In this document: in pieces, positions 3,870 to 32,094 of the stretch
Position numbering within the stretch: position 1 is the first letter of the stretch
Layout of the letters: every line of letters begins with the position of its first letter
Assembly: GCF_041919955.1 (NCBI RefSeq)
Contig: NZ_JAYRSU010000008.1
Coordinates: 2,943-66,942 of the forward strand
Direction: 5' to 3'
From: Phenylobacterium sp.
Lineage (GTDB): Bacteria; Pseudomonadota; Alphaproteobacteria; Caulobacterales; Caulobacteraceae
DNA: 64,000 bases
The notes under the pieces: generated by a model
Database searches by the model: none
Told to the model about the DNA's origin: nothing
The model's input: the letters and a program-made list of their open reading frames with translations, nothing else
Made by a program: the position numbers and the translations under genes

Positions 3870-4682
3870 ATGCAGGCGCCCGCCCCGATCCCCGAAACAA
3901 GCAGGAAGAAGCGGCGCGCCTCACCGCGCCAGCCGTCACGCGGTCGCGGGCTGGCGCGCTATGCTGCGCTTCTGGACGCGGCCCACGACCTCCTCAAGCG
4001 GGAGGCGCCCGACGCCATCGGCCTCTATCAGATCGCCGAGCGGGCCGGCGTACCGCCTGCGTCGGCCTATCACTTCTTTCCGACCAAGGAGGCCGCCTAT
4101 GTCGGCCTGGCGGAACGCTATTGTGACGAGATCGTGCGCATTCACAGCGTGCCGATCCCAGCCCGCGACATTGCGAACTGGCAGGACGTGTTTCGCATCG
4201 ATCTGAGGCGGGCGATGGCCTATTTCAACAGCGAGCCTTCGGCCATGAAGATCCTCTACGGCGGCTACGGCGGCGTAGAGGCGCGGAACATCGACAAGAT
4301 CTTCTCTCGCAAGCTCGCCCAAGCGAACTACAGCCGCCTCGACAAAATCTTCCACATGCCGGTCATGCGCGACGCGGAGAAGAAATTCGAGCTCCGCCTG
4401 GCGATCCTCGACAGCATCTGGGAGGTGTCTGTTCGCCGGCACGGGCATATCACCGAGGACTACTTCACCGAGGCGCTGGACGCCTGCAACGCCTACATCC
4501 GACTGTTTCTGCCAGAACATCTGGAACCACGGGAGATCCTGGTGCGCGCCATGGAGCGCGACGCCGTGGTCCATCTTCATCTTCCCGGCGACCAGATCGA
4601 GATTTCACCACGGGACATCGAACTGGAGCATTGGAATGGCGATGACGGGCCGAGCCCGCCACCGCCCTTCGCCTATTCGTAG
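3870..4682 (+). CDS. TetR/AcrR regulator, paralog 1
   Basis: [31 protein letters not shown]-domain KILYGGYGG is shared with the 7382 and 13568 genes. Confidence 0.9.
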
Positions 4683-5629
4683 TCGATGGCGAAGCTGTAC
4701 TTCGGGTCGTAGTGGGCCTCCCAATAAGACTCCCAGACCTGACGGGTGATCGGCCCGACTTGGCCGCCCCCGACCGGTTGACCGTCGAGTTCTGTGATCG
4801 GCATGACCCCGCCTGCGGTCGTGCAGATGAAAATCTCGTCGGCATGGTAGAGCGCGTCCACCGGCACATAGGTCAGCTCGGCCTTGATCCCCTTGGCGGC
4901 GGCGATTTCCAGGACCGTGCGGCGGGTGACCCCTTCGAGCACGCCACGCGAAGGCGTCGTGAGCGCCCCGTCCCTGACCACGAAGATGTTGTATCCGCCG
5001 CCCTCGGTGATGTTTCCGTCCCCGTCCGGAAGCAGGGAATAGACCGCACCGCGATCCATGGCCTCAAGCCAGCCGCGTACGAAGTCGCCCCACTGCAGGT
5101 TCTTGATCGTCGGGTCCATAGCGCCCGGCGGCGTGCGGCGGACCGTCCGCGTGACGACCGCCTTGCCGCCCGTCGGATGAAGCTGCGGCGGCATCGCCCA
5201 GACGTAGGGCATGACCATCAGGTACAGGCTGTTTTCATAGCTTTGATACTCGCGAATGAACTTCAGGCCGCGCGTGACGATGAGCTCGACATAGGCGTCG
5301 CGGATGCCGCTCTTGACCACCATCTCGATGAGGGTCTTGCGGACGCTCTGGCGATCCAGCGGGATGCGAAGCCGCATCTTTTCGCAGCTTGCTTCGAGGC
5401 GATCGAGGTGATCGTCGAGGCGGAAGAAGCGCCCGTCCCAAACCGCGGGAACATCGTAGGTCAGGTCCGAGCGCAGGAAGCCCTGATCAAGGATCGGGAT
5501 TCGCGCCTCCGCCAGCGGGTAGAGTTCCCCCTGGATCCAGGCCACGCCCCCGGCCAGCGGATTCTCAGACACCTCGAGCGCGCTCCGGCGCGCCTCGTGC
5601 GCTCCAAGCACCTTCTCCATCGAGTACAT
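4673..5629 (-). CDS. PLP fold-type IV aminotransferase, (R)-selective amine transaminase type
   Basis: [30 protein letters not shown] (PLP Lys), LEGVTR, TTAGG. N-terminal helix MYSMEKVL...NPLAGG and C-terminus YSFAIDY resemble fungal R-ATAs as I recall them. Confidence 0.93.
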
Positions 5630-5800: not shown

Positions 5801-7108
5801 TCATTGGCTTGCGGGGGTCTGAACGGGCGCGGCCTGACGGCCAGCGGGCAGCGCCAGGCTGCAGATGGCGGCCGGCAGGTAGACAAGCGCCACAAAGACC
5901 AGGAAGCCGGAGGGGCCCAGATGGTCGAAGCTCCAGCCCGCGAGGCTTCCGCCCGCCGCGTAGCCGGCCTGCAAGGCGAAGTACCATCCGCCATAGGTCA
6001 CGGGAAACACCGCGTCCCCGAACTGGCGTCGGGTGAGCGTGATCCAGAGGACCTCGCCGGCGCCGAAGGCGAAGCCGAGAGCGAGCGCGCCGGCCCCTGC
6101 GAGGATCACGCTCCGGCTCTCAGGGGCGAGCGCCAGGGCAAAGACGCCAAAGCTGATCGCCGCCACGATCGCCAGCGCGCTCCACCTCGCGTTGAAGCGG
6201 TCGAGCATCCAGCCGATCGCGACCGAGCCCGTCGTGCTCCCGCCGGCGGTCATCCCCAGCAGAGTCGCCGCAGCAGCCGGCGAGAAGTGCGCGCGCCGCA
6301 ACAGCGCCAGCTCCTGGGTCAGGACGGCGATCGAAGCCATGCCGGCGCCGATCACCGCGACGAACATGCAGCCAGCCACCCACGGATTGATGGCTTTCAC
6401 GTCGCCGGACTGGGTATTGCCCGACTCGCCGCGCGCCGTCCGCGCGCCGTCGATCTCGCGCGCGGCGATCGGGTCGCCGTCCAGGCCCAGCCCCATCTCC
6501 GTCGGCGACGATGGACCGCGCGACAGGAGCGAGATGGCCACGGCGACCGCCAGAAGGCCGCCGGCGACGACCAGCGTCGCCGGCCGCCATCCCAGCGTCA
6601 GAACCAGCGCCTCAGTGGCCGGTGAGAGGGCCAGTCCGCCGGTCGAACCCCCGGCCCAAACCAGGGCCATGGCTGTGGCAAACCGCCTGGAGAACCAGCG
6701 GGCCGTCAGCATCGGGACAGCCGCGATCGCGAGGACCTTGCCGAAACCCATGACGATGCGCAGCAGATAGAGCTGCCAGAATTCCGTGACGAAGATCAGG
6801 GAGGCCAGCACCAGCGCTTCGGCGCAGAGACCGAACAGGATCAGGCCCCATGGGCTGAAACGCCGCGTCAACGGGCCATAGAACAGCGCCAATGGAGCGA
6901 CCAGCCACATCGCCGAAACGAGGCCGCCGGTTTGCGCCGCGCTCCACCCGTGCTCCTGAGCTAGGGGCTGGGCGACCACGATGAACGAATAAATGCTGGA
7001 GCCGAAGATCGCGAACGTACAGAGGAAGAGCGCCAGAACGACGCGCCATCCGAAGTAGACGCCACGCCCCAAGGACATCGACGCCGCCGCCGGCGGATAT
7101 TCCGTCAT
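5801..7108 (-). CDS. MFS transporter (OFA-like)
   Basis: About 12 hydrophobic segments; YFGWRVV N-terminus; ARWFSRRFATAMAL and GWMLDRFNAR motifs. Confidence 0.9.
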   Translation of the reverse strand: MTEYPPAAASMSLGRGVYFGWRVVLALFLCTFAIFGSSIYSFIVVAQPLAQEHGWSAAQTGGLVSAMWLVAPLALFYGPLTRRFSPWGLILFGLCAEALVLASLIFVTEFWQLYLLRIVMGFGKVLAIAAVPMLTARWFSRRFATAMALVWAGGSTGGLALSPATEALVLTLGWRPATLVVAGGLLAVAVAISLLSRGPSSPTEMGLGLDGDPIAAREIDGARTARGESGNTQSGDVKAINPWVAGCMFVAVIGAGMASIAVLTQELALLRRAHFSPAAAATLLGMTAGGSTTGSVAIGWMLDRFNARWSALAIVAAISFGVFALALAPESRSVILAGAGALALGFAFGAGEVLWITLTRRQFGDAVFPVTYGGWYFALQAGYAAGGSLAGWSFDHLGPSGFLVFVALVYLPAAICSLALPAGRQAAPVQTPASQ

Positions 7109-8359: not shown

Positions 8360-9562
8360 ATGGCTGTGCAGCAATCTGTCGATCTGGCCCAGGAGACCGC
8401 CCCGTCGCAGCGATCGGTGGACGCGCCGTCCGCCGTCGTTGCAGCGGCATACCTCATCGCCCTCAACCAACTGGTCGCGAACATCCAACCGCTGCTGCTG
8501 GGTGCGCTTGCGACGGATTATGGCTTGAGCGACCGACAGCTCGGCCATGTGAGCGCATTCTACGTCGGCGCAGTCACCCTGTGCACCTTGTCGGCTCCAT
8601 TGTGGATCCGCCGGATCAACTGGCGCCTGGCCACGCTCGTATCCGTCGCAGGCTGCGTCGCGGCCTTCGCCTGGGGCGCGACGCTGAACGGCGTGGGGAT
8701 GTTCCTCTTGCTGTTCGCCATCCTGGGCTTTGCGAAGGGCTTCTTCGGCGCCCCCGCGTTCGCCAGCCTCGGCGACGGTTCGAATCCTGACCGCGGCTAC
8801 GGGCTGTCCACCGTGCTGCAAAGCCTGATCGCCGCGGGCGCGGCGGCTCCAGTGGCGAGCTACATCATTCCGACCTACGGTGTCAGGGGCCTCTTCATTT
8901 CACTCGCCCTCGTCTACGCTACCGGGATCGTGGCCGCGCGGTGGATGCCAGTCGGCGCGCGCTCGCCGCGTGCGGCAAGCCTGAGCCCCGCCGAACCCGG
9001 AGAAGCATTGCTGTCTTGGGCGGCCATTCCGCCCCTGGTCGCGGGGTTCGCCGTCGCGCTGTTCGCCGGAGGGATTCTGGCTTTCTGGTATTTCGTCGAA
9101 CGGATCGGCGTCGCGCGCGGCGTGCCCGCACAGACCATCGGCCTGACCATCAGCCTGGCCGCTTTCGCTTCAATTCTCACCTCGGCGATCAACACCTGGC
9201 TGGGGGGCCGCGTACCGAGCCTTGCGTTCGTCGCCGCCGGGACGGCGCTGCTCCTGGCCTCCTACGCGGTTCTGCTCGTCCCGGGCGATCTGGCCTTTGT
9301 CGCCTGCAACCTGCTGTTCGCCCTCGGCTGGGGGTTTGCGCAGCCGGCCTACTGGACGATCGTCCGCAGGGTCGATCATACGGGGCGGCTGTTTGTGGCG
9401 GCTCCCGCCGCCTCTGGCGCCGCCGGCGTCGCCATCGGAATCTTCGCCGGGCCGGTGATCGAGTCGGGCGGATACTCCGGACTGATAGGCCTCAGCTCGG
9501 CGCTGATCGCGGCGGCCATCCTCTGCATCGTCGGCGTGCTGCGCTTTGCGGCGGCTCGCTGA
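8360..9562 (+). CDS. MFS transporter
   Basis: About 12 TM segments; PLLLGALATDYGLS...WIRRINWR, same subfamily pattern as the MFS domain fused to the P450. Confidence 0.9.
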   Translation: MAVQQSVDLAQETAPSQRSVDAPSAVVAAAYLIALNQLVANIQPLLLGALATDYGLSDRQLGHVSAFYVGAVTLCTLSAPLWIRRINWRLATLVSVAGCVAAFAWGATLNGVGMFLLLFAILGFAKGFFGAPAFASLGDGSNPDRGYGLSTVLQSLIAAGAAAPVASYIIPTYGVRGLFISLALVYATGIVAARWMPVGARSPRAASLSPAEPGEALLSWAAIPPLVAGFAVALFAGGILAFWYFVERIGVARGVPAQTIGLTISLAAFASILTSAINTWLGGRVPSLAFVAAGTALLLASYAVLLVPGDLAFVACNLLFALGWGFAQPAYWTIVRRVDHTGRLFVAAPAASGAAGVAIGIFAGPVIESGGYSGLIGLSSALIAAAILCIVGVLRFAAAR

Positions 9563-9598: not shown

Positions 9599-10447
9599 CT
9601 AGTTCAGCAAAGTGATCGGGTCGACCATCTGCCCGTCCACCTCGACCCAGCCCATGTGATTGACGCCTGACGACCAGCCGAGCAGGCGCTGAATTGTCTC
9701 CGGATAGCTGGCCACGACGTCGCGCGACAGCGCCAGGTACATGTTCTCCTCCTGGCGGACATTGGCCGCATCGATCGTGATCGTCAGGCCGGTCCTTAGC
9801 TGGTCGGAGGTCGTGTTGGTCCCGCCGGCGTGATAACAGCTGCCGACGAACAGCAGCGCCGACCCGGACTTCATGATCGTGGGGCGGGCCTCCGACATTT
9901 TCGGGACGCGCTCGTCATCCCAAAGGTGGCTGCCCGGAATAACCAGCGTGCCGCCGTTCTCGGCGGTGAAGTCGGATATCGCCACCATGACCTGGAGGCG
10001 CGCCTCGCGGCCATAGGTCGGATGTCGCCAAAGGAAGGCCGTATCGTCCCGATGCAGCGGCTGGGCTCCCTGGCCGGGCCCGATCTGAATGAGCTGGGTC
10101 ACGCCGATCCGAATGCCGGGATAGAACTCCCGCCTCTGGTCTCCCGCCCCGTAGACCACCGGCCGATTGATCAGCGCTTCGGCTACCGGAAGATATAGGG
10201 GGTGCGTGGCGACGTCGGCCATGCGACGCGAGTGGGCGAAGAGCGCGCTCATCCGCTTGGTCTGAGCGCCCGAAAAGGGATCCCCGCCCGTCGATTTCGC
10301 CGCCAGCTTCGGCAGCAGATCCGCTTTCAGTTCGGAGATCGTTTCCGCGGGGAGAAAGTCCTCGATGATGACTCCTCCATCGCGCTCGAGGATCGCCAGG
10401 ACGTCCTGGGCGGTCGACGCCGCGGTCACCCTCTCGACTTCAGCCAT
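9599..10447 (-). CDS. Phytanoyl-CoA dioxygenase (PhyH) family Fe(II)/2OG dioxygenase
   Basis: QPLHRDD (HxD), AISDFTAENGGTLVIPGSH, CYHAGG (distal His). Confidence 0.92.
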   Translation of the reverse strand: MAEVERVTAASTAQDVLAILERDGGVIIEDFLPAETISELKADLLPKLAAKSTGGDPFSGAQTKRMSALFAHSRRMADVATHPLYLPVAEALINRPVVYGAGDQRREFYPGIRIGVTQLIQIGPGQGAQPLHRDDTAFLWRHPTYGREARLQVMVAISDFTAENGGTLVIPGSHLWDDERVPKMSEARPTIMKSGSALLFVGSCYHAGGTNTTSDQLRTGLTITIDAANVRQEENMYLALSRDVVASYPETIQRLLGWSSGVNHMGWVEVDGQMVDPITLLN

Positions 10448-12142: not shown

Positions 12143-13036
12143 CTACAGCGCCAGATGCTCTTCCAGAGGCCGCGTATGGGCTCGCCACAGGAAGCCGGGC
12201 TGCTCGCCCTTGTAGGAGATCGAGCGGAACCCGAGGTAGGACTGCAGGCGCTGCGGGTAGGTCCGCGCCTCGTCCGCCGTGATGACATGCGGCCACGCCT
12301 CTTCACCCAGGATGATCCCGGGGCTGAACGCGGTCGACAGCACCCGGCGTCGCCGATCCTTCGTGACGTTGGCGCCGCCGCCGTGCAGCACCTTGCCGCT
12401 GATGCAGAGCACGTCGCCGGGGAACATGGTCGCCGGAATGGTCTGGGACTGTTCTCCCGGCGTCTCGTAAGATTCCCAGTGGTTGCTGCCGGGGATCACG
12501 CGGGTCGCGCCCATTTCCTCGGTGACGTCGGTCAAGGCCAGCAGGAAGTTGACCTGGAGATTCGGACCGCCGGGGCCGCCGACGCCGAGGACCTCCATCA
12601 GGCCGCCGCCATCGCGGTGCAGTTCCTGGGGCCGCTCGCCGGGATAGATCTCGATCCCGTGGCTCGCATACATCGTATGGCTCCCCGCCGGCCCCGGCAT
12701 CATCGCAGCCAGATACTCCCGGATGATCGGTGCGTCGTAAAAGGCCTCCCGCAGGGTGCGGCTGTATTTGACGCAGTGGGCCAGGCGCTTGGTCTTGTGG
12801 CCCATGAAGTCGCCGACGAAGGTCTGTCCGCCATCCGAGAAATTGCCGCCCGCCAACCGATCGAACTCGCGGTCGAGATCGGCGTTGATCGCGGCCACCT
12901 CGGCCGCCGAGAGGGCGGCGGTCAGGATGACGCCTCCCTCCAGTTCGACGACGGCGGCGACCTCTTCGGCCGGCGCCCCGAACGGCAGGCGGCGCATGGT
13001 GGCCGAGGGGCGCGCGGAGACGGCGTTCTGGGACAT
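12143..13036 (-). CDS. PhyH family Fe(II)/2OG dioxygenase (second copy)
   Basis: QELHRDG, ALTDVTEEMGATRVIPGSNHW, VLHGGGAN. Start set at ATG 13036. Confidence 0.92.
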   Translation of the reverse strand: MSQNAVSARPSATMRRLPFGAPAEEVAAVVELEGGVILTAALSAAEVAAINADLDREFDRLAGGNFSDGGQTFVGDFMGHKTKRLAHCVKYSRTLREAFYDAPIIREYLAAMMPGPAGSHTMYASHGIEIYPGERPQELHRDGGGLMEVLGVGGPGGPNLQVNFLLALTDVTEEMGATRVIPGSNHWESYETPGEQSQTIPATMFPGDVLCISGKVLHGGGANVTKDRRRRVLSTAFSPGIILGEEAWPHVITADEARTYPQRLQSYLGFRSISYKGEQPGFLWRAHTRPLEEHLAL

Positions 13037-13097
13037 GTCATTCAAACTCCATTGGAGATCAGATGGGGGCATGGAGATCGCGCACCGCGCCCGGCAC

Positions 13098-13550
13098 TCG
13101 ACAAAAATCGTATGGGGAAGCACTCGGCTTCTGACTCGAAAGCCCACGCCGGTCGGGCCGCCCCTTCACGGCCGCGCCGGGGAATCTCACCGTCATAATA
13201 TTGATCCCAGGGGACAAAATGCCCACCGTCGACGGCCTTTTCATCTCGCGCGTATGGCCGGGACTGCAAGACGCCATGTGAGACCCTCAGCGAGTTTCTC
13301 CCGCTCCTGAAACTGATAGAAAATCAATTTAAATCGAATTTCAAGCGGTTCTTGAGCTTTTCAAAGAATAGCGAGCCGCGCCCACGCTCAGCGCCGGGGC
13401 GCGGCCCCACGCGGCGCCCAGCGCACGCCGCAGCCAATCCGCCTCACGAAGCACGAGCCGACAGCCCGCAGACGCGACCCAAGGCCTGAATTCTTGCCAA
13501 GTTGACGACTTTCCGCCATCTCAGACCGCAGGATAGTTGAATAATATCGA
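13098..13550. promoter_or_regulatory. Three TCGA-N6-type motifs in the divergent PhyH2/TetR3 intergenic region
   Basis: TCGA CAAAAA TCGT (13098), TCAA TTTAAA TCGA (13324), TTGA ATAATA TCGA (13537). Confidence 0.5.
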
Positions 13551-14328: not shown

Positions 14329-16398
14329 TCATCGCCCATGGGTGAACATCTGAGCGTGGGCCGGCGGGGGCCGGCGCGCTTCGGCCAGCAGATAGGCGCG
14401 CAGATCTTCGACATCGGTTTCGTTGAAGTAGCGCCGGAACGAAGCCATGCCCTGGGTCGAGAGCGCGCCCTCCAGGACGATCGCGCGGAACCCTTCAGGC
14501 TCCAGAATCGCCGAGGAACGCGCCAGGACCGGGAAGAACTGTTCGGCTCCGTGACACGTCACGCAGAACTGGTCGGCCAGCGCCTTGCCATGCGCGGGGT
14601 CCCCCTTCGACGGCGTGGCGGAACTGACGTCGAGGCGCGGCGCCACGAAGGGTTCAGGCAAGGCGGGCGGGCGGCCGTCTCCGCCAAGCTTGAAGACCAG
14701 AAGGCGTCCTTGCCTGCGCGGCTCTGGGCCGCCGATCGCGGCCGCGCCTCCATAGCCGACCATCAGAGCGACGAACTGCTCGCGGCCGACCGCGTATGAG
14801 ATCGGCGGAGCGATGGCGGCCGCGCCCACGTCGACGCGCCACAGCTTTGCGCCGCTCGCCGCATCAAAGGCGATCAGGTCGTGGCCCGCGGCGTGAAACA
14901 CCAGATCGCCCGCCGTCGCCAGCACCCCGCTGCGCCACGGCTCGGGAAAGTTCACGGTCCAGCGCGCGCGTTGCAGCACCGGATCCCAGGCGACGAGCGC
15001 GCCGCTCACGGGAGGTTCCCTGCCGTCCGCCGGCGGCGTCGCCGCCCCCTGCCCCATGTTCCATGCGCCAGGGACATAGGTGAAGCGGGCCGGGTCGCTG
15101 TAGCTCATGTGGAGGATCTGCGCCGGGATGTAGACGAGACGCCCCTTCGGATTGAAGGCCATCGGCTGCCAGTTGTGGCCGCCCAGCGCGCCTGGGGTCT
15201 GCAGGTTTTCCCTCAGATATCGCGCGTTCGCCGTCTCGACCGGCCGGCCGGTCCGGAGGTCGATGCGTTCGGCCCAATCGGCCGGGACATACTTCTCCGC
15301 CGAGAGCAGTCGCCCCGAGGCGGCGTCGAGAACGTAGAAGAAGCCGTTCTTGGGCGCCTGCATGACCACGCGGCGCTCGCGCCCGTCGATCGGCAGGTCC
15401 GCCACCATGATGTGCTGGGTCGCCGTGAAGTCCCAGCTTTCGCCCGGCGTGGTCTGGTAGTGCCAGACGTACTGTCCGGTGTCCGGCTTCAGCGCCACGA
15501 TCGACGAAAGGAAGAGGTTGTCGCCGCGCCCGCCGGACCGGATCTTGTGGTTCCAGGGCGAACCGTTGCCGACGCCGACGAACAGAAGATCGAGCTTCGG
15601 ATCGTAGGTGATAGCGTCCCACACCGTGCCGCCGCCGCCCGTCTGGCGCCACGCGCCCTCGCTCCAGGTCGAACCGGCTTTCTCGCGCAGGACGGCGTCA
15701 GAGGCCGCGCCATCGGCGCGCCCCTGGGGGTTGGGCGTGGTGTAGAAGCGCCAGACGAGCTTACCGCTCGCCGCGTCATAGGCCGAGACGTAGCCGCGGA
15801 CGCCATACTCCGCGCCGCCGTTGCCGATGATGATCAGGCCCTTCACCGCCCGCGGCGCGCCGGTGATCGTGTAGGGCTGGCCGGTCGGCGTCGTCTGGAC
15901 GCTCCAGGCCGGCGCGCCGGTCCGGGCGTCGAGCGCGATCAGCCGCCCGTCGAGGGTTCCGACATAGACACGCCCCTTCCACAGCGCCACGCCTCGGTTT
16001 ACCGCGTCGCAACAGGCGTCGAAGCCCTTGGCGCCCAGGACTTTCGGATCGAAGGCCCAGAGCCGCTTGCCGGTCTTGGCGTCGAACGCCAGCACCTTGG
16101 ACCAGGCCGTGGTCGTATAGAGGACCCCGTCCGCGACGAGCGGCGTGGCCTCCTGCCCCCGGTCCGTATCGAGATCGGCCCACCAGGCGACGCCCAGACG
16201 GACGACGTTGTCGCGCTTGATCGCATCGAGCGGCGAAAACCGCTGCTCGGCGTAGTCGCGGCCATAACTCAACCATTCGCCGGCCTTAGCCGCTTCGATG
16301 CGCCTGGCGTCAACGCCCTGACTGCAGGCGCAGAGCAACGACAGCGCCATGAGCGCCGCGCCGCCGATCAACCGTCGGACCTTCAGATTTCCCACCAT
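14329..16398 (-). CDS. Type II quinohemoprotein PQQ-dependent alcohol dehydrogenase (Ca2+ type), exported, possibly lipoprotein
   Basis: Signal ...ALSLLCAC; RGQEATPLV; vicinal CC (DACCDAVNRG); WDFTATQ; C-terminal heme c motif CVTCH. ATG 16398. Confidence 0.93.
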   Translation of the reverse strand: MVGNLKVRRLIGGAALMALSLLCACSQGVDARRIEAAKAGEWLSYGRDYAEQRFSPLDAIKRDNVVRLGVAWWADLDTDRGQEATPLVADGVLYTTTAWSKVLAFDAKTGKRLWAFDPKVLGAKGFDACCDAVNRGVALWKGRVYVGTLDGRLIALDARTGAPAWSVQTTPTGQPYTITGAPRAVKGLIIIGNGGAEYGVRGYVSAYDAASGKLVWRFYTTPNPQGRADGAASDAVLREKAGSTWSEGAWRQTGGGGTVWDAITYDPKLDLLFVGVGNGSPWNHKIRSGGRGDNLFLSSIVALKPDTGQYVWHYQTTPGESWDFTATQHIMVADLPIDGRERRVVMQAPKNGFFYVLDAASGRLLSAEKYVPADWAERIDLRTGRPVETANARYLRENLQTPGALGGHNWQPMAFNPKGRLVYIPAQILHMSYSDPARFTYVPGAWNMGQGAATPPADGREPPVSGALVAWDPVLQRARWTVNFPEPWRSGVLATAGDLVFHAAGHDLIAFDAASGAKLWRVDVGAAAIAPPISYAVGREQFVALMVGYGGAAAIGGPEPRRQGRLLVFKLGGDGRPPALPEPFVAPRLDVSSATPSKGDPAHGKALADQFCVTCHGAEQFFPVLARSSAILEPEGFRAIVLEGALSTQGMASFRRYFNETDVEDLRAYLLAEARRPPPAHAQMFTHGR

Positions 16399-16409: not shown

Positions 16410-16730
16410 TCAGTGCTGGCTTTGCGGAAGACGCACGACCAGGCCGTCCAGCGCATCGACGATCCGGATCTGGCATGAGAGCCGCGAGTTCTCTTCGACG
16501 CCCTCGGCGAACTCCAGCATGCTCTCCTCCATGGCCGTGCGGCCGCCGACCTTCGTGAGCCAGGCCGGCTCCACATAGACGTGGCACGTCGCGCAGGCGC
16601 AGGCGCCGCCGCAGTCGGCGTCGATGCCGGGGACGTTGTTCTTCACGGCCGCGTCCATGACCGTCAGGCCGGCGTTGGCCTCGACGACGTGCGCATCGCC
16701 ACTGTGCTCGATGTAGGTGATTTTCGGCAT
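16410..16730 (-). CDS. fdx: 2Fe-2S ferredoxin (putidaredoxin/adrenodoxin type)
   Basis: [13 protein letters not shown]...SRLSCQI. Confidence 0.95.
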
Positions 16731-16823: not shown

Positions 16824-19311
16824 TCAGGGGCGGCCCGAGGCGAGACGGCGCCCCAGCACCATGAACGCGGCGAGGCTGACCGCCGCCGCGCCCGCGAACA
16901 GGGCGTAGAGCGGCATGAAGCCGTGCGCGCCGGTCAGCAGCGAGCCTGCCAGCATCGGCCCGAGCGCGCCGCCGACGGCGAGCGCAGCCGGCATCAGCAC
17001 CGCCACATTGCCGCGGCCGTCCGACGAGGCGATCATCCCCATCTGATAGGCCATGGGGAAGTTCCACAGCCCCCCGGCCAGCACGACGCCGGCCAGATAG
17101 GCGCCGAGGCCCTGGCCCCACTGAAGCGCCGCAACACCGGCGATCGCCAGCAGCATCCCCACCGCCAGAGGCTTCGCACGCCCGAGCTTGTCTCCCAGGA
17201 AGGCGGCCGCGAGGCCCGCCACGCCGCTGACCACCAGGGTGGCGGTCAGGACGCCGTCGGCGGCCTGCGGGCTGACGCCGAACGTCGGGGCGAGTTCGGA
17301 GATGAACGCCCAGAGCGCGGCCAGGCCTGCGAAGGCGACGAACAGCGCCGACAGCCCGAGCCAAGGCGCCCAATCGCGCAGGACCGGCGAGCGGCCGCCG
17401 GCCAGACGCTGCATCGCAAAGCGTCGCTCGGGCGGGGTGAGCGCGCGGCCGGCCGGCATTCCGCGAAGTCCGCAGAGCGTCGCCACGCCAACCATGCCGG
17501 CCAGGGTCAGGACCGCGCCGGAGAACCCCCATCGCGCGGTGACGAACGTCGTCAGGGCCAGCAGGGCGACGATGGCGAGCCCCACCTCGCCTGCGAGCTT
17601 GAAGCCGAACGCCTGGTCAGGCCGATGATGTTCCGAGACCACGGCGATGCAGACGGTGTAGAGCACCCCCAGGCCGGCCCCGGCGATCACCAGGGCCGCC
17701 AGCAGCACCGCGTAGGATCCTACCGCCGCGCAACTCGCCAGGCCCGCCACAGATAGGGCCGAGGCGCCCGCCACCAGGCGGCGCCAGTTGAACCGGTCGA
17801 TCCATAGGTTCGAGGTCGTTGCGACGAGCGCGAAACCCGCCAGGTAGCTGGAGCCGACCAGTCCGATCTGGTTCTCATGAAGACCGAAGCGGGCCGCAGC
17901 GGCGACCAGCAGCGCCGGCATCAGGTTGAAGAGCAGCGCCGCGGCCGCCGATACCGCCGTGGCCGAGGCCAGGACCGTCTTGGACTGCCGATAGAGCGTC
18001 GGCCGCTCGACCGGCGGCGGCGCTTCGGCCGGCGCCGAGCGGGCTGGCAGCGCGCTCGAAGCCGGAATGCGGACCGGGAGGCTGGTGTAGCCTTTGACGA
18101 ATGGCGTGGCCGGGCGAACGGGCTCGCCCATGACCTCGATCACCGGGTAGCGTTTGAGAATCTCTTCCCAGACGATGCGCAACTGCATCTCGGCAAGGCG
18201 GTTGCCCACGCAGCGATGGATGCCGAAGCCGAACGACATGTGCTGGCGCGGTCGCTCGCGGTCGATGATGTAGCGGTCGGGGTTCTCGATCACCGTCTCG
18301 TCACGGTTGCCCGAGACGTACCACATGACCACCTTGTCGCCCTTCTTGATGGTCTTGCCGCCGAGTTCGGTGTCCCGCGTCGCCGTTCGCCGCATGTGCG
18401 CGAGCGGCGTCTGCCAGCGAACCGTCTCGGAGACCATGGACGGGATCAGCTCGGGATGATCGCGCAGCTTCTGGTACTGATCGGGGTTCTGGTTCAGCGC
18501 CAGGACGCTGCCGGTCATGGTGTTCCGGGTCGTGTCGTTGCCGCCGACGATCAGGAGAATGACATTCCCCAGATACTCCATCGGCGACATGTTCCGGGTG
18601 GCCTCGCCGTGCGCCAGCATGGAGATCAGGTTGAAGGCCGGCTCGGCGTTGACCCGTTCGTTCCACAGGCGGACGAAGTAATCGAGGCACTCCATCAGGA
18701 CTGCGGTCTGCTCCTCGACCGTCTCCACCAGCGCCCCGGGCGCCGGCAGGGTCGTGGCGACGTCGGACCAGTAGGTGAGCTTGCGTCGGTCCTCGAACGG
18801 AAAATCGAACAGGGTTCGCCAGCATCTGGGTCGTCAGCTCGATGGAGACCCTGTCGACCCAGTCAAACGTCTCGCCGATGGGCAGCTCGTCCAGGATCTT
18901 CGCTGCGCGTGACCGGATCAGATCTTCCATCCGCGCGAGATTGGCCGGGGCCACGATGGGCGCGACCACCTTGCGCTGGTGATCGTGCTTGGGCGGGTCC
19001 ATGGCGATGAACATCGGCAAGGCGTCCTTCGACAGGTCGTCGAGGATGGCGATGCCGCCGTAGCGGATGTCGGATGAGAACGCCTCGTGGTTGGTGTCGA
19101 CCGCCATGATGTCGTTGAACTTCGTCACCGACCAATAAGGACCGAACTGGCTCTTCGGGCAGAAGTGAACCGGGTCCTCGGCCCGCAGCCGCGCGAAGTA
19201 GGGCCAGTGGCTGTCGGTCCGCCAAAGCTCCGGATTACTGACGTCGATGTCCTCGAGCGCGATTGCAGCCGCATCCAGGCTCTCGCGGGCGACAGCGCCA
19301 TCGTCTGCCAT
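16824..19311 (-). pseudogene. CYP153-family cytochrome P450 fused in frame to a C-terminal MFS transporter; one +1 frameshift at 18815-18816 (real or sequencing error)
   Basis: P450 motifs [48 protein letters not shown]. After LPVRIPA a Pro/Ala linker leads without a stop into about 12 TM segments. Removing one A in GCGAACC restores [16 protein letters not shown] and a single 828-aa ORF. Confidence 0.85.
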
Positions 19312-19362
19312 GGGTCATGCTCCCTGCTGGCCGGTTATATCCGGCTGCATTGCCTAGGTCAT

Positions 19363-19402
19363 TCGTCCTAGATTGAGTAGGACGACCGTCCTAGACTGTC
19401 AA
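19363..19402. promoter_or_regulatory. TetR operator overlapping the P450 promoter
   Basis: Perfect dyads TAGGACG-AC-CGTCCTA (19378-19393) and TCGTCCTA-N7-TAGGACGA (19363-19385). Minus-strand TTGACA at 19397-19402. Confidence 0.75.
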
Positions 19403-19427: not shown

Positions 19428-20075
19428 ATGAGCGACATCGATTTGGCGAAGGCGAATCCGCGAGCGCGGAGGAGCCATGAGGCGGCGGCGGATTCACGGA
19501 GCGTGAGCGAGAAGATCCTCGACAGCGCCGAGATCGTTCTGCGGCGCCACGGCTATGCGGGCTTCTCGACCCGGCGCGTCGCGCAGGAGGCGGCGATTGC
19601 GTTGGGCAACCTCACCTATCACTATCCGACCAAGCCTGAGCTCGTCCAAGCGCTGATCAGCCGGCTGATCACGCGCTATCTGGATCGCTTTCAACAAGTC
19701 CTCAGGACGCCTGGGCGCGGTGTGGAGGATCTGGTTCGCTGGCTGCTGGAAGAGGCCGTCGCAGAAGAAGCGATGTGGCTGTTTCGCGAACTCTGGGCCA
19801 TGGCCCTGCATGACGAGATCGTGCGCGAAGCGATCGACGACCTCTACGATGAGCTGATGGGCAAGGTCGCCGCGACGCTGGAGGCCGCCTACCCCTCGGC
19901 GGACCCGCAGGCCGTGCGGGACCTCGTCCAATTCATCGCCCTGATCTCGGAGGGCAGCACGGTGCTCTACGGGACGAGACGATCCAGGGTCACGCCTCGC
20001 CAACGGATGATCGACCTCGCCGTGCGCCTCACCTCCGTGATCGCGCCCGAACTGGCGCCGGGCGGCGCGTCGTGA
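19428..20075 (+). CDS. TetR/AcrR regulator, divergent from the P450 operon
   Basis: HTH FSTRRVAQEAAIALGNLTYHYPTK. Confidence 0.92.
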   Translation: MSDIDLAKANPRARRSHEAAADSRSVSEKILDSAEIVLRRHGYAGFSTRRVAQEAAIALGNLTYHYPTKPELVQALISRLITRYLDRFQQVLRTPGRGVEDLVRWLLEEAVAEEAMWLFRELWAMALHDEIVREAIDDLYDELMGKVAATLEAAYPSADPQAVRDLVQFIALISEGSTVLYGTRRSRVTPRQRMIDLAVRLTSVIAPELAPGGAS

Positions 20076-21121: not shown

Positions 21122-21420
21122 CTGCGATTCCTGGCCGGCTGCCCGATATATCCACGCAGCGCGCAGGCCTTCGCAAGGCTGCGCCGACGACCTCAGATAC
21201 ATGCGGTATTGACCGGATGTAAATTGCCGATCTAGTTTGCGCCCGACTCCGGGGCATCGGGGCGCTTCAGAATTCGAGACAGCCGCCGCGGGCGCGCCGC
21301 TTTGCGCCCGCCCCAGTACCCGTTCCTTTCGGCTCCGCCTCCCATTCCGAAGCGCGTCGGCGCGTCATGATATCGATTACACAACCAGGCGGTGAAAAGG
21401 CCGCCGAAACAGGGGGAAAG

Positions 21421-23760
21421 ATGAGCATTTCCATTCGCGGGCTGTTGCTGGCCACTTCGGGCCTGGCCCTCGCGGCACTGGCCGCGCCGGCCGCCGCGCA
21501 GACCACGCCCGACAATATGTTGGCCGAGCTGGTGGTCACCGCCCAGAAGCGGGCCGAGAACGTCCAGGACATTCCCAAGCCCGTCCAGGTCGTCGGGTCC
21601 AACGAACTGGCCCAGAGCAACGTCACCGAGATCTCGGACCTGAAGAAGCTGGTGCCGGCGATTTCCGGGACCGGGCTCAGCATCCGCGGCGTGGCGACCT
21701 CGGCCTCCAGCATCGGGGCCGAGAACAAGGTCGGCGTCACGCTGGACGATGTGCCCCAGCCCTCGCGCGCCACCCTCGCCAACAACCTGATCGACATCGA
21801 GCGGGTCGAGGTGCTGCCCGGGCCGCAAGGCACCCTGTCGGGTCGCAACGCCACCGGCGGCCTGATCAACCTGGTCACCCGCGCGCCGTCCAAGACCTGG
21901 ACCGGCTTCGCCACCGCCATGGTCACCGACGACCACGAACGCCAGTTCGGCGCCTATGTCTCGGGCCCGGTCACCGACTGGGCCGCCTTCAGCCTGTCGG
22001 CCTATTCGCGCCACACCCGCGGCCTGTTGACCAACCTCACCACCGGCACGGACACCTATTCCGAGGTCAGCGGCCTGCGCGGCAAGCTGGAGCTGACCCC
22101 GACCGACGACCTGACCGTCACCCTCACCGCCTTCCATCAGCAGCGCAACGCGGTGGAACAGGGCCTGGGCGCCTTCATCCTCGCCTATTCGTCGATCCCG
22201 ACCTCGCAGATCTTCACGCCCTACGACTTCAACGGCCCGCGTCGGCCGTTCTCGGAGCTGCGCCCGGCCGCCGTCGGTCCCGGCCAGAACGGCTTCTCCT
22301 CGCCGCGCGACTCCAAGAGCCGCACCATGAACGACGGCGGCGTGATCCGGATCGACTACGACCTGGGTGAAAGCACCCTGACCTCGATCACCTCGTACCT
22401 GCGCGAGACCAATCCCTCGCGCACCGACCTGACCGCCTCGACCCTGGTCAACATGGCCATGCGGCCGGACTTCGACGGCTTCGCCCACATCTTCAACAAG
22501 ACCAACTACATGACCCAGGAGGTGCGGCTGACCTCGCCGACCACTACCGCCTTCCAGTACGTGGTCGGCGCCTTCTATTCGAAGACCGAGAACACCTACG
22601 ACTACACTCGCTTCCTGCTGCCGGTGGACTGGCACCGAGTGTTCGGCCAGGAGGCGGTCGCGATCTTCGCCCACGCCTCCTACGACGTCACCGACAAGCT
22701 GACCCTGGCCGGCGGCCTGCGCTACGAGAAGGACGAGATCGACTACGACTGGACCTTCAAGCCGATCGGCGCAACCAGCCGGCGGCTTGAGAACGGCATC
22801 ACAATCCCCTTCCCGAAGATCAACGACCTGATCGTCAGCCGCGGCTCGGCCTCGGGCGACTATGTCAACTACGACATCTCGGCCCAGTATCACCTTACCG
22901 ACGCGATCATGGCCTATGTCACCTATGGCAAGGCCTCGCAGGGGCCGGTCTACGACGCCGAGGACAACACCGTGGCCATGGTGCGCCCGCTCACGGCGCT
23001 CGAGCCTGAGAAGGTGAAGGCCGTCGAGGCGGGCCTGAAGACCGAATGGTTCGACCGTCGCCTAGTGCTGAACGCCAACTATTTCGACAGCCGCTACGAC
23101 AACTACCAGCTCCAGACGATCCTTTACGACGCCACCATGGCCAACACGATCCCGGTGCTGAAGCTGGCCTCGGTCGGCCAGGTGCGCACTCGCGGCGTGG
23201 AGCTGTCGGCCGCGGCCGTGGTGACCAGCGACTTCCGCCTGAACGCGGCGGTCTCCTACACCGACGCCAAGATCGAATCCTTCCCCTACGCTCCCTGCTA
23301 CACCGGCCAGACCGTGGCGCTGGGCTGCGAGACCATCGTGGTTCCGGGCGAGACGGCCGCGCGGCCGGTGCAGCGCGACCTGGCGGGCCGCTCGCTGGCC
23401 AGCGCGCCCAAGTGGCGGGGCACGTTCAGCGGCGCCTACACCTTCCGCCAGCTCGTCGGCGATTACGACCTGATCCTGAGCGGCACGGTCCGCGCCCAGA
23501 GCAAGTCCAACACCGATCTCCTCGGCGACCCAGCCAAGAACCTTGCGGCCACCACCTTCGTCGACGCCGCCGCCAGCCTCACCAACGGGACCTATCGGTT
23601 CGATCTGCTGGCCAACAACCTCTTCGAGGAGAGCGCCGAGACCTACGGCACGACCATGGGCATCTATCAGCCGCCCGCCGGCACGGTGATCCGCACCCGC
23701 ACCGGGATGAGCCGCGACAACACCCGCTACTTCGGGCTGCGCGTCACCGCGACCTACTGA
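21421..23760 (+). CDS. TonB-dependent receptor
   Basis: Signal peptide, ELVVTAQKRAENVQDIP, DIERVEVLPGPQGTLSGRNATGG, C-terminal RYFGLRVTATY. Confidence 0.95.
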   Translation: MSISIRGLLLATSGLALAALAAPAAAQTTPDNMLAELVVTAQKRAENVQDIPKPVQVVGSNELAQSNVTEISDLKKLVPAISGTGLSIRGVATSASSIGAENKVGVTLDDVPQPSRATLANNLIDIERVEVLPGPQGTLSGRNATGGLINLVTRAPSKTWTGFATAMVTDDHERQFGAYVSGPVTDWAAFSLSAYSRHTRGLLTNLTTGTDTYSEVSGLRGKLELTPTDDLTVTLTAFHQQRNAVEQGLGAFILAYSSIPTSQIFTPYDFNGPRRPFSELRPAAVGPGQNGFSSPRDSKSRTMNDGGVIRIDYDLGESTLTSITSYLRETNPSRTDLTASTLVNMAMRPDFDGFAHIFNKTNYMTQEVRLTSPTTTAFQYVVGAFYSKTENTYDYTRFLLPVDWHRVFGQEAVAIFAHASYDVTDKLTLAGGLRYEKDEIDYDWTFKPIGATSRRLENGITIPFPKINDLIVSRGSASGDYVNYDISAQYHLTDAIMAYVTYGKASQGPVYDAEDNTVAMVRPLTALEPEKVKAVEAGLKTEWFDRRLVLNANYFDSRYDNYQLQTILYDATMANTIPVLKLASVGQVRTRGVELSAAAVVTSDFRLNAAVSYTDAKIESFPYAPCYTGQTVALGCETIVVPGETAARPVQRDLAGRSLASAPKWRGTFSGAYTFRQLVGDYDLILSGTVRAQSKSNTDLLGDPAKNLAATTFVDAAASLTNGTYRFDLLANNLFEESAETYGTTMGIYQPPAGTVIRTRTGMSRDNTRYFGLRVTATY

Positions 23761-28843: not shown

Positions 28844-31800
28844 TCAGAAGCTCTTGCTGACCTGCGCGAACCAGTAGCGCCCACGATTGCTGTAGAGCTT
28901 GGTGAAATAGCCGAACGTCTCGTCGGCCAGCGGCGGGTCCTTGTCGGCGATATTGTTCACGCCGACCCGGAAGGCGACGCCGGCCAAGGCCCCCTCTTCC
29001 GGCGCATAGCCGACGGCCGCGTTGAAGGTCAGCCAATCGTCGCCTTTGTAGAGCAGGGCCGAGGAGTCCTTCACCGCCCCGACATAGCGGGCGTAGCCGG
29101 ACACTTCCCACGGACCAGACGACCAGGTGACATAGGCTTGGCCGCGGGTGCGGGGATTGTCGTCCTGCTCGATCAGCGAGCCGCCTGCGCTGGCCGGCAG
29201 GCCGGCGGCCAGAAGCGCGGCCGCCTCGGCCGAGGGCGTCTGGTCGAACTTCTGCAGCAGGGCGACATCGAGGCCCAGGCGGAAGTCGCCGAAGTCCGTA
29301 CCGTCGATGCGCCAGGTCGCGCCCAGGTCGATGCCCTCGATGGTGCGGGAGTCGAGATTGAGGAACTGGTTGGCGATGCGGACCGGCTCGCCCAGCGCAT
29401 TGCGGGTGAGAGCCGGGTTCGGCCCCGAACCGCCGAGCCGGCCGATGGCGTCGAGGTTCAGGTGGTCCTGCGACTCGAACACCCCGACCACGCCCTCCTG
29501 CTCGATGCGCCACCAGTCGACGGAGAACAGGAGGTCAGGCGTCGGCGTAAAGACGATGCCGGCGCTGAAGTTTTCGCTGGTCTCGGACTTGAGCGCCCGG
29601 TTGCCGGCCCGCACGTCCTCGACATTGAACCGATAGGTCGAACAGGCGGAGCGGTTGAGGTTGGCGAACTGCGTAACGCCCTGGGCCACCGCGCAGGCGT
29701 AGTAGTCGGTGAGGTTCTCCTGCACGCGACGGATCTCGGACGCGTTCACCGTCTCGAGGTTCGGCGCGCGGAAGCCCTGGGAATAAGCGGCCCGCACCAG
29801 GAGATAGTCGTTCAGCCGCCAACCCAGCGCCGCCTTCGGGCGGACGATCTGCTCGTCGATGTCGGAATAGTCCTCGAAGCGTGCGGCCAGCTGCAGGTCC
29901 AGGCTGCGGACGAACGGGATGTCGGCCTCTTCGGGGATCAGCTTTGTCTGAAGTTCCGCATACGCCGAGAACACCTTGCGCGAGCCGGACGTATCGGGCG
30001 TCGGGCTGGACCCCATCGCGTCGCTCGTCGGCCCGCCGGAGGTCGCGAAAGTGATCGTGCCATCGATCCGCGGGTCGCGGTCGTCCTTGAAGGTCTCGCG
30101 CCGCCATTCAGCGCCGAAGGCCAGACCGACGTCGCGGCCGGCGAGGGTGAAGGCCTGGGGATTGCTGATCTTGGCGTCCCACAGCGCCAGGCTGGTGGTC
30201 CCATCGCGGGTGATGCTGACCCGCAGCGGATCGACCACCGCGGCCGGGTTCAGGGTCGCGTCGAAGCCGCCCGGATTGGCCAGGTTCCCGCCGTTGAAGG
30301 GATTGTAGGCGCGTGCGGGGTCGCTGCTGTTCAACGCCGCCTGGAGGGCGGTGTTGCTGACGCGGTTGCTTTCGACGTCCTTGGTGCGAGCGTGCGAGTA
30401 GAGCAGCGCGCTCTCCCACGCCCAGCCGCCCAGCTTGCCGCGCACGCCGCTCAGCAGGCGGTAGGCGTCGGAGTCCACGTCGATCCGGCGGCGACCGACA
30501 TCGTCGACGCGCAACCCGACCACGGTGATGGCCTGGGCCGGCCCCGTATATCCCGCCAGTCGCCCAGGGCCGGAGCCGAACGGATTGTAGGGGTTGTTCG
30601 CCCCGATGCTCAGCGGCGCGGAGGTCAGATTCGTAGTGCCGCCGCGGACAGAGCTCGACGTCGCGCCATAGTAGAGCGCCTGGCCGAACCACTCGACACC
30701 GCCGAAGTCATGGCTGGCCACCGCCATCAGGCTGTAGCGGTCGGAGCTGGGCGACATGGTGCGCTCAGGCCCCTCGTCGGTGCGCAGGGTTCCGTCCAGG
30801 GTTGTGGAGCCACCGTCGATACAGACGCTCCCGCCAAGCTGAGCGTCGGAACCGGTGTAGGAACAGGGCTGGATATGAAACGCCGTGAACGACGGTCCAA
30901 AGCCGGTCACGGCGGTCCCGACCCGGCCAGTCAGCCAAGGCGTGAGGCTCGATCGGTTGTCGAAGCTGCCGGCGTACTGCGCTGAAACACGGCTGCTGAG
31001 GTTGTCGGTCGCCGCATAGTCGCGATCGCTGGCGGGCATGTCGGTGCGGCTGAAGTACTCCCCGAACAGCGCGACGTGCGTGGCGCCGTCGTTGAAGCGT
31101 GCGCCCCACTTGGCGCCGAGCGAGGCCTCGGTGAGGTTCGTGCCCTCCGATCCGCCATAACGGGCGACGACCTCGGCGCCGACATAGCCGTCGTCCAGAA
31201 CGTTGTTCAGCACGCCGGCGACAGCGTCGGAGCCGTAGAGCGCCGCCCCGCCGTCCCGCAGGACCTCCAGGCGCTTCAGGGCCGTGGCCGGGATGGTGTT
31301 GAGGTTGACCACCTGGACCGGGACCGAGCCTTCCTGCTGGGTGCCGGGGTGAGCGACCATGCGCCGCCCGTCCAACAGCACCAGCGTGTTGCCAGAACCG
31401 AGCCCGCGCAGGTTCGCCGACGCCACGTCGCCGCGAGCCTGATTGGGGCCCTGCTGCTCGTTGTTGAACGCCTGCCCGCCAGACTGCGGCAGAGCGGCGA
31501 TCATTTCACCCGCCGTGACCGCCCCGCTCATCTCGAGTTCGCTACGATCCACCACCGAGACCGGCAACAGGCCCCGCTCGGTGACGCCGGCGATGTTCGA
31601 GCCGACCACCACGATCTCCTCGATCTCGGCGGGCGCGACGTTCTCCACCGTCCCGGAAGGTGCGACCGGCGCAGCCGCTGTCGACACCTTGCTGACCGTA
31701 GCCGGCGCCGGCGCGCGTTCGATGACGATGGTGCGGCCGCTTTCGCGCGAGCGAAGAGGCTGGCCGGCCAGCAGCCGTTGGACCGCCGCGGAAACGGCCA

Positions 31801-32023: not shown

Positions 32024-32094
32024 GCCGCGCCCCCTTTGATCCCTTCCCGCGCGATGCGGGTGTCCAGGCGAAGACGCCAAGGGGCCTTGGCCCC

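Follow-up and report, generated by a model that had tools for sequence, protein, structure and literature searches.

A conserved fusion of a CYP153A-type cytochrome P450 to an MFS transporter in Alphaproteobacteria, with a frameshifted copy in Phenylobacterium

A 64,000-nucleotide (nt) stretch of a Phenylobacterium sp. contig (NZ_JAYRSU010000008.1, positions 2,943 to 66,942; hereafter the window, in whose coordinates all positions are given unless a locus is named) carries a gene on its minus strand (19311..16824) in which a CYP153A-type cytochrome P450 runs into a major facilitator superfamily (MFS) transporter, as indicated by open reading frame (ORF) analysis and by Pfam and structure-database matches. 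This raises the question of whether the two halves truly form one protein and, if so, what a P450 attached to a transporter would do. The P450–MFS fusion is real, conserved and uncharacterised, and we regard its architecture and conservation as very nearly certain. Based on its sequence, the encoded product would be a membrane-tethered CYP153 fused to a complete MFS transporter.

The gene begins with an ATG at 19311-19309 and, after removal of one extra base (see below), encodes a protein of 828 amino acids (aa). Residues 1 to 165 (18817..19311, minus strand, frame A) align to the N-terminal part of CYP153A7. Residues 166 to 417 (18060..18815, minus strand, frame B) contain the I-helix GGNDTTRN, the ExxR motif ETVRW and the heme-binding sequence FGFGIHRCVGNRLAE, and end in LPVRIPA. 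This P450 domain is followed by a Pro/Ala-rich linker (residues 418 to 439, SSALPARSAPAEAPPPVERPTL; 17994..18059, minus strand) and by an MFS domain of 12 transmembrane (TM) helices (residues 440 to 828; 16827..17993, minus strand), with the stop codon at 16824-16826. The repaired translation matches both Pfam p450 (6.4e-26) and MFS_1 (4.2e-19; 69.1 bits against a gathering cut-off of 33.4), and the Pfam scan of the 828-aa protein returned no domain beyond these two, and thus no flavin or Fe-S reductase domain.

At the junction, the P450 frame stays open past LPVRIPA (18080-18060) and runs on for 411 further residues into the 12-TM domain. The linker contains no stop codon and no ATG, GTG or TTG, as stated in a preliminary description of this locus, and the first such in-frame codon is an ATG at 17921, within TM1. 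The same description had proposed a complete CYP153 domain that continues beyond LPVRIPA into about 12 TM segments. Both parts agree with the present results. Residues 14 to 416 match the CYP153A7 structure 3RWL (E = 8.6e-184) up to residue 425 of its 426 residues, which makes the P450 domain complete, with ...VRIPA as its end, and 12 transmembrane helices are present in the AlphaFold models. The predicted full-length model has a mean predicted local distance difference test score (pLDDT) of 83.5, with good confidence for each of the domains.

A trivial explanation for such a gene would be that two adjacent genes were joined artificially, through mis-assembly, loss of a stop codon or an error in sequencing. 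The window copy carries an indel, which leaves its local sequence quality open to question, and several database entries consist of the MFS half alone (P0065, P0067 and P0070). However, the occurrence of the fusion elsewhere has already refuted this explanation, and its chance of being correct is negligible. A protein search with the 634-aa ORF of the window, clustered at 90% identity, recovered at least 62 protein clusters of 792 to 844 aa that share 65 to 96% identity with the query at 99 to 100% query coverage. PF00067 and PF07690 are both present in 62 of the 62 clusters, among which are the isolate Sphingomonas sp. CL5.1 and members of the Hyphomonadaceae, Caulobacteraceae and Rhizomicrobium. 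In addition, an MFS-only alignment scan of the GTDB collection with one genome per species returned 23 loci with the fusion, a lower bound since the scan rests on two peptide patterns, and a metagenome scan added further loci. The fusion is carried by the isolate genome of Sphingomonas sp. CL5.1 (CP050137, 1977571-1980060; locus L001), and a Sphingopyxis soli BL03 record has it as well.

When the repaired protein was used as a tblastn query, every locus not cut by a contig end gave a single-frame match across both halves, with the exception of L027 (5381-7872) and its near-duplicate L037. In these the frame shifts near residue 540, within the MFS half, and they would represent a second copy that was broken independently, unless the shift stems from assembly. 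An uninterrupted ORF of 827 to 840 aa is present in each of the 29 complete related loci. These loci and the 62 clusters derive from isolates, metagenome-assembled genomes (MAGs) and metagenomes of different sources, and the length of the linker is conserved across them. Members of the Caulobacterales, Sphingomonadales, Hyphomonadaceae and Rhizomicrobium have kept the fusion intact. At the junction, none of the close homologues shows a stop codon and a separate MFS start, the finding that the preliminary description had named as evidence against the fusion, and the homologues covering both halves for which it had called are found in the clusters, the GTDB loci and metagenomes.

Two of the entries that appear to lack a P450 are explained by their gene calls. 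P0065 (408 aa) and P0067 (417 aa) are annotated as "MFS transporter", but the underlying DNA (L005:4741-7227 and L006:4765-7254) encodes in each case one uninterrupted fusion ORF of 828 or 829 aa whose P450 half was left uncalled. The idea that stand-alone MFS homologues represent split genes was rejected on the same grounds. Since public annotation omits the P450 half at these two loci, architecture counts taken from annotated proteins are too low. P0121, which aligns from its second residue into the linker of the fusions, is probably another partial gene call. When the MFS half was searched against a library of representatives at 50% identity, none of the proteins retrieved reached 800 aa, despite the plentiful fusions in the 90% library; the fused family appears to be hidden there under other representatives. 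Automatic database labels read either "cytochrome P450" or [quoted passage not shown].

The window copy itself is interrupted. One extra base is present at 18815..18816 (minus strand; TT on the plus strand, AA in the coding sequence), where relatives have a single base. The coding strand reads GCGAACCC instead of GCGACCC, and this additional T on the plus strand shifts the frame after residue 165. As a result, the ORF list contains two overlapping minus-strand ORFs, 18301..19311 (336 aa) and 16824..18728 (634 aa). Only the first 165 residues of the 336-aa ORF are genuine P450 sequence, and the P450 resumes in the frame of the 634-aa ORF. Dropping one A of GCGAACCC brings the two parts seen in the six-frame translation back into one frame and gives a protein of 828 aa. 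The preliminary description was correct about the junction, but the 828-aa protein is not an intact ORF of the window and exists only after a 1-nt repair, a circumstance that the description conveyed solely through the word "repaired".

To place this base, contigs of four public sequencing runs (X1, X2, X3 and X6) and locus L047 were compared with the window. In run X1, from activated sludge, independently built contigs are identical to the window, with a word depth of about 18, and contain the extra base. Close relatives in contigs of runs X2, X3 and X6 are each one base short at 18815. L047, which encodes a protein 96% identical to the repaired one (P0001) and has the gene order of the window (TetR, fusion, ferredoxin and then an unannotated 680-aa gene), shows its sole internal alignment gap to the window at 18816. 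We consider it probable that the 1-nt insertion is real and not a sequence error; a small residual chance is left for an error common to the assembly and its source run. Programmed ribosomal frameshifting at 18815/6 was rejected, as a slippery heptamer is absent and near-identical relatives lack the base. Between the window and L047, the ratio of nonsynonymous to synonymous substitution rates (dN/dS) is 0.01 to 0.07 in the P450 and MFS segments and 0.22 in the linker, a short segment with three substitutions. Judged by the ratio downstream of the shift, which is still 0.07, no decay has accumulated there. Given the near-identical relatives without the extra base, the window copy is most likely a very recent pseudogene, and the fusion protein is probably not made by the organism of the window. 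For the window itself the message is accordingly modest: the fusion gene is present but broken.

To trace the origin of the fusion, 62 fused and 45 stand-alone CYP153 domains were placed in a neighbour-joining tree. All fused P450 domains fall into one clade, which indicates a single fusion event within alphaproteobacterial CYP153A. The only "stand-alone" entries inside this clade are three short ones, of which P0081 is annotated as partial, P0075 lies on a 1.9-kb contig and P0074 is nearly identical to the fused P0042. In the Caulobacteraceae MAG locus L018 (862-14119), the fusion is accompanied within 14 kb by three CYP153 paralogues that share 56 to 62% identity with the P450 of the window, giving four CYP153 genes in one cluster. 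An origin from an operon of adjacent CYP153 and MFS genes was considered and rejected, as no such arrangement is present at the loci inspected: no MFS gene adjoins the two sister stand-alone CYP153 loci examined (L045 and L046), and no P450 gene adjoins the stand-alone MFS relatives at L030 and L038-L040.

Selection was assessed by the Nei-Gojobori method on 12 pairs of fusion genes. The dN/dS ratio is 0.03 to 0.16 in the P450 half, apart from a value of 0.30 for two near-identical genes that differ by hardly any substitutions, 0.09 to 0.24 in the MFS half and 0.07 to 0.63 in the linker, which shows that purifying selection acts on both halves. Among 63 fused sequences, the I-helix GGN(D/E)TTRN, the ExxR motif and the heme loop with Cys367 are invariant in 62 to 63, as is, or nearly so, a motif-A-like sequence in MFS loop 8-9, GD(R/K)xGRx(K/R)P. 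E560, D565, K571, E575 and D764 of the MFS half are invariant, and the segment WNFPxAYQMGxIA is invariant or nearly so. The linker is constant in length to within a few residues, with S418, L421 and R424 retained in 63 of 63 sequences. The Y-R-Q-P sequence before TM1 is conserved too. As it is also present at the N terminus of stand-alone MFS relatives, it belongs to the MFS family, leaving a true linker of about 22 residues. Based on the purifying selection and the invariant motifs, both halves look functional.

The P450 half can be assigned with the usual nomenclature convention, by which members of a family share >40% identity and members of a subfamily >55%. The predicted model of P0001 shows 66 to 67% identity to 3RWL and 7AO7 in Foldseek, with target template modelling scores (TM-scores) of 0.92 to 0.95, and by identity to these named CYP153A members the P450 half belongs to the CYP153 family, subfamily A. 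The heme-thiolate signature FxxGxHxCxG, the acid-alcohol pair of the I-helix and ExxR are all present. CYP153A enzymes are terminal (omega) hydroxylases of alkanes, fatty acids or alicyclic compounds, and their substrates are typically hydrophobic.

The affiliation of the MFS half is less specific. Modelled separately, it reaches a pLDDT of 94.3 and a predicted TM-score (pTM) of 0.92 and forms 12 helices in two six-helix bundles (residues 8-179 and 211-389 of the model), connected by a loop at 180-210. Foldseek matches are to MFS structures only, with OxlT, SfMCT and MCT1 first (E-values of 1e-10 to 1e-9, TM-scores of 0.68 to 0.78, identity of about 16 to 19%). A family-profile search likewise gave full-length but weak matches to MCT2 (7.6e-12) and SfMCT (4e-11). 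The best NCBIfam match, SfMCT, scores 29.2 bits against a cut-off of 320, which leaves the MFS half outside the MCT/SfMCT/OFA families, and matches to EmrD and MxcK amount to only 17 to 22 bits. A single-sequence PDB search with the MFS half returned nothing relevant. Besides the sequence of loop 8-9, which resembles the MFS motif A (GxxxD(R/K)xGR(R/K)), WI(D/G)RFxWR is present in loop 2-3. When the TM5 region (AFGFKLAGEVGLAIV / AFGFKLAGEVGLAIVALLAL) was read directly, neither antiporter motif C (GxxxGPxxGG) nor a GP motif was found, so the domain lacks the hallmark of DHA1/DHA2 drug:H+ antiporters. A full-library HMMER search recovered 1929 relatives of the MFS half, nearly all stand-alone proteins of about 390 aa. 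The closest genuine stand-alone relatives are 43 to 46% identical, and a 59% identical paralogue adjoins the fusion in L019. The motifs PDxAFGxK and WNFPxAYQMG are common solely to an uncharacterised subfamily of MFS proteins of about 390 aa. The MFS half therefore belongs to this uncharacterised subfamily, with a slight lean to carboxylate carriers that is a resemblance at the fold level only.

The N-termini of MFS transporters are cytoplasmic, and the Arg/Lys-rich segments of the fusion, located ahead of TM1, in loops 2-3 and 8-9, in the central loop and at the C terminus, fit that topology. We infer from this that the P450 domain must face the cytoplasm, where the ferredoxin is. Taken together, the sequences and models point to a catalytically intact-looking, cytoplasm-facing CYP153A domain tethered to a conserved and intact-looking MFS transporter.

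In a rival reading, the MFS half would serve mainly as a membrane anchor or scaffold, comparable to the N-terminal anchor of eukaryotic microsomal P450s. The P450 would then be placed where hydrophobic substrates partition, and the MFS half would not itself move the P450 substrate. This idea draws on the hydrophobic nature of typical CYP153 substrates and on the models, in which the fusion would fix the P450 at the cytoplasmic face of the membrane. However, one helix would suffice as an anchor, and the constraint across the entire MFS half, with dN/dS ratios as low as those given above, goes far beyond what an anchor needs: the 12 helices, the motif-A-like loop and the five charged residues named above are retained throughout the 63 sequences. 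Moreover, stand-alone relatives of the same subfamily are ordinary transporters of about 390 aa. We therefore consider a pure anchoring role improbable.

The gene context provides further indications of function. On the minus strand, the order is fusion, 2Fe-2S ferredoxin, quinohaemoprotein alcohol dehydrogenase and then, beyond a TetR-family gene on the other strand, PhyH-family dioxygenase, a monooxygenase resembling flavin-containing monooxygenases (FMO-like) and again PhyH. The ferredoxin (16410..16730, minus strand; 106 aa; Pfam Fer2, 2.9e-11) lies immediately downstream of the fusion, as do its orthologues in L001, L006, L007, L023, L035 and L047, and is the probable electron donor to the P450 domain. 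Divergent from the fusion is a TetR-family regulator (19428..20075, plus strand; Pfam TetR_N and TetR_C_6), orthologues of which, with 55 to 70% identity, adjoin the fusion in L001, L006, L007 and L035. The intergenic region between the two genes contains an inverted repeat (19354..19394; CTAGGTCATTCGTCCTA / TAGGACGACCGTCCTAG). Similar repeats are located at the same place in L001 and L035, and this element is a candidate TetR operator.

Among the partners of the fusion, the one conserved best between genomes is an Fe(II)/2-oxoglutarate dioxygenase of the PhyH family (9599..10447, minus strand; Pfam PhyH, 3e-30). Its orthologues, with 58 to 66% identity, occur in over half of the related loci and in many cases directly follow the fusion gene. 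A second PhyH-family dioxygenase (12143..13147, minus strand; Pfam PhyH, 9e-23) has orthologues of 42 to 57% identity in L005, L006, L007, L009 and L019. On the plus strand, a TonB-dependent outer-membrane receptor is encoded at 21367..23760 (Pfam Plug and TonB_dep_Rec_b-barrel), and such receptors are also found near the fusion in L001, L003, L005 and L006. Another TonB-dependent receptor of the window, at 28844-32986 (minus strand; 1380 aa), has its STN domain from residue ~377 onwards, preceded by an N-terminal extension of about 370 residues without a Pfam match.

Pfam domains were counted in the 119 ORFs located at most 3 kb from the fusion, to which 27 of the 28 loci contributed. This census is dominated by PhyH (23 ORFs) and TetR_N (14 ORFs), followed by RidA, the FAD oxidoreductase domain DAO and Pyr_redox_2 (6 ORFs each), MFS_1 (5 ORFs) and TonB receptor barrels (4 ORFs). 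The conserved partners are therefore PhyH dioxygenases, TetR regulators, RidA and ferredoxin and not classical alkane-degradation genes. The assumption that the P450 acts on alkanes or fatty acids receives no backing from this context. In addition, both the tblastn comparison and the census show that an alcohol dehydrogenase is not conserved among the neighbours. Some neighbours are amine-related, namely RidA, a class IV aminotransferase and, in L019, an amine oxidase. Across the 64 kb of the window, no tRNA gene and no Rfam family reached threshold.

The fusion gene of the window lies in a larger island (554-23760), parts of which are also found in Sphingomonas sp. CL5.1 (L001) and in a Hyphomonadaceae MAG (L003). 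It comprises genes for a TPR-sulfotransferase (554-2086), a short-chain dehydrogenase/reductase, five TetR regulators, a class IV aminotransferase (4673-5629), two further MFS proteins (5801-7108 and 8360-9562), two PhyH dioxygenases, the FMO-like monooxygenase, the alcohol dehydrogenase and the TonB-dependent receptor. At L019 (3770-16730), an integrase and a serine recombinase flank the fusion, which hints that this region is mobile. The fusion is followed there by the stand-alone paralogue of the same MFS subfamily mentioned above (12143-13471, minus strand), PhyH genes and a flavin amine oxidase. In L005 (7571-10129, minus strand), an 852-aa two-domain enzyme composed of an alpha/beta-hydrolase (Abhydrolase_3/BD-FAE) and an FMO-like monooxygenase is encoded beside the fusion.

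From the combination of these features, we infer, as did the preliminary description, that the MFS half moves either the substrate or the product of the P450. The direction is the point at which two readings part. In the first, import-coupled hydroxylation, an organic substrate may enter through the outer membrane by way of the nearby TonB-dependent receptor and would be brought across the inner membrane by the MFS half, possibly as a carboxylate or an amine-bearing lipid-like compound. On the cytoplasmic face, the P450, with electrons from the adjacent ferredoxin, would hydroxylate the substrate on arrival ("vectorial hydroxylation"), which would trap it metabolically and feed it to the cytoplasmic PhyH dioxygenases. 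Import is favoured because the recurrent partners (PhyH, RidA and FAD oxidoreductases) are catabolic enzymes of cytoplasmic type, because the ferredoxin gene directly follows the fusion and because TonB receptors recur nearby. The leads to the nature of the substrate, namely the carboxylate-transporter-like fold, the PhyH partners and the amine-related neighbours, are all three weak.

In the second, a compound present in the cytoplasm or dissolved in the membrane would be oxidised by the P450, and the product would be expelled through the MFS half. Export of this kind might act in detoxification, or it might supply an alcohol to enzymes of the periplasm, for example a pyrroloquinoline quinone-dependent alcohol dehydrogenase (PQQ-ADH). 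The window indeed encodes a quinohaemoprotein enzyme of this type, with a PQQ propeller and a C-terminal cytochrome c, two genes downstream of the fusion (14329..16398, minus strand; Pfam PQQ, 3.4e-77, and Cytochrome_CBB3). Since the listed ORF overlaps the ferredoxin gene, its true start is probably an internal Met before a hydrophobic, signal-like segment. A PQQ-ADH with such an N terminus is likewise found downstream in L003, the divergent TetR gene with its candidate operator beside an MFS-containing gene is the usual layout of TetR-controlled efflux pumps, and the Foldseek and profile matches include the exporters and antiporters OxlT, NorA, SotB and VMAT. However, tblastn located a PQQ-ADH homologue beside the fusion, besides the window, only in L003/L010, which represent one genome, and export to this enzyme as the main rationale was rejected for that reason. 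In L047, the closest relative, the corresponding position is occupied by the unannotated 680-aa gene. The conserved partners PhyH, RidA and ferredoxin are catabolic enzymes of cytoplasmic type, the nearby TonB-dependent receptors suggest uptake, and the TM5 region (AFGFKLAGEVGLAIV) lacks antiporter motif C. Export is in our estimation unlikely, though somewhat less so than simple anchoring.

Several observations weigh against import-coupled hydroxylation. A divergent TetR gene beside an MFS gene is also the classic layout of efflux pumps, and the MFS half resembles carboxylate transporters only weakly, at about 18% identity and 29 bits for SfMCT against a cut-off of 320. Because the sister stand-alone CYP153 loci L045 and L046 have no adjacent MFS gene, no pre-fusion operon backs a functional link between the two proteins. 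Apart from PhyH and TetR, the gene context differs between genomes. The full-length model leaves the orientation of the domains unsettled, with a pTM of only 0.66 and a linker pLDDT of 63 to 78, and a search of RNA runs gave a single metatranscriptome, which contains 5% of the words, too few to be of use. Import-coupled hydroxylation is for these reasons a tentative mechanism, which we judge to fall slightly short of an even chance. The whole statement, architecture and mechanism together, appears to us evenly balanced between being right and being wrong. A stronger version, in which the protein would act as a single machine whose MFS cavity passes the substrate straight to the access channel of the CYP153, coupling uptake to C-H hydroxylation, is more doubtful still, and we judge it somewhat unlikely.

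A conserved and selected P450–transporter fusion would add a new logic to P450 biology, in which oxidation is coupled to passage across a membrane, and would provide a tractable system for asking whether an enzyme can draw its substrate directly from a transporter. If the single-machine version is true, this would be the first natural P450–transporter fusion of that kind. It would also be a natural answer to the substrate-uptake limit in CYP153 whole-cell biocatalysis, for which an uptake-linked CYP153 could serve as a chassis part. Furthermore, the CYP153–MFS fusion, PhyH dioxygenases, RidA and TetR together would constitute an unexplored catabolic module of freshwater, soil and sludge Alphaproteobacteria.

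In comparison with known systems, the P450 half closely resembles characterised CYP153A enzymes, including CYP153A7/P450pyr (3RWL) and the Polaromonas CYP153A (7AO7), with which it shares the heme-thiolate, I-helix and ExxR motifs. As in class I CYP153 systems, a 2Fe-2S ferredoxin gene is adjacent. However, characterised CYP153s are soluble stand-alone proteins of about 400 to 480 aa, whereas the fusion protein continues into a 12-TM transporter. The surroundings differ too: the fusion is accompanied by PhyH, TetR and RidA, whereas an AraC-type regulator lies beside one of the two stand-alone CYP153 loci (L046). The best structural and profile matches of the MFS half are the carboxylate transporters OxlT (OFA), SfMCT and MCT1/2, but at an identity of only about 16 to 19% and far from the family cut-off.

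Natural fusions of P450s to redox partners include CYP102/BM3 (P450-CPR), CYP116B (P450-PFOR) and XplA (flavodoxin-P450). To our knowledge, characterised P450 fusions are mostly to such electron-transfer partners. These proteins likewise combine a bacterial P450 and a functional partner in one polypeptide through a short linker. In contrast to the "self-sufficient" P450s, the fusion described here has no redox domain in its polypeptide, and its likely electron donor is encoded by a separate ferredoxin gene. Because the ferredoxin remains separate, the fusion would couple the enzyme to transport or to a membrane location and not to electron supply. The preliminary description knew of no characterised P450–transporter fusion, and full-text literature searches aimed at a P450/CYP153–MFS fusion likewise found no description of one. 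The closest functional analogy is LplT–Aas, in which the MFS lysophospholipid transporter LplT and the acyltransferase Aas form a complex and, in some bacteria, are encoded as a single fused ORF, these fused forms being themselves uncharacterised (PMC11416262). There, too, an MFS transporter is coupled to an enzyme at the cytoplasmic face that modifies its cargo. The analogy is drawn for function only. The LplT–Aas enzyme (an acyltransferase/acyl-ACP synthetase) is unrelated to P450s, and its transporter belongs to a different MFS subfamily.

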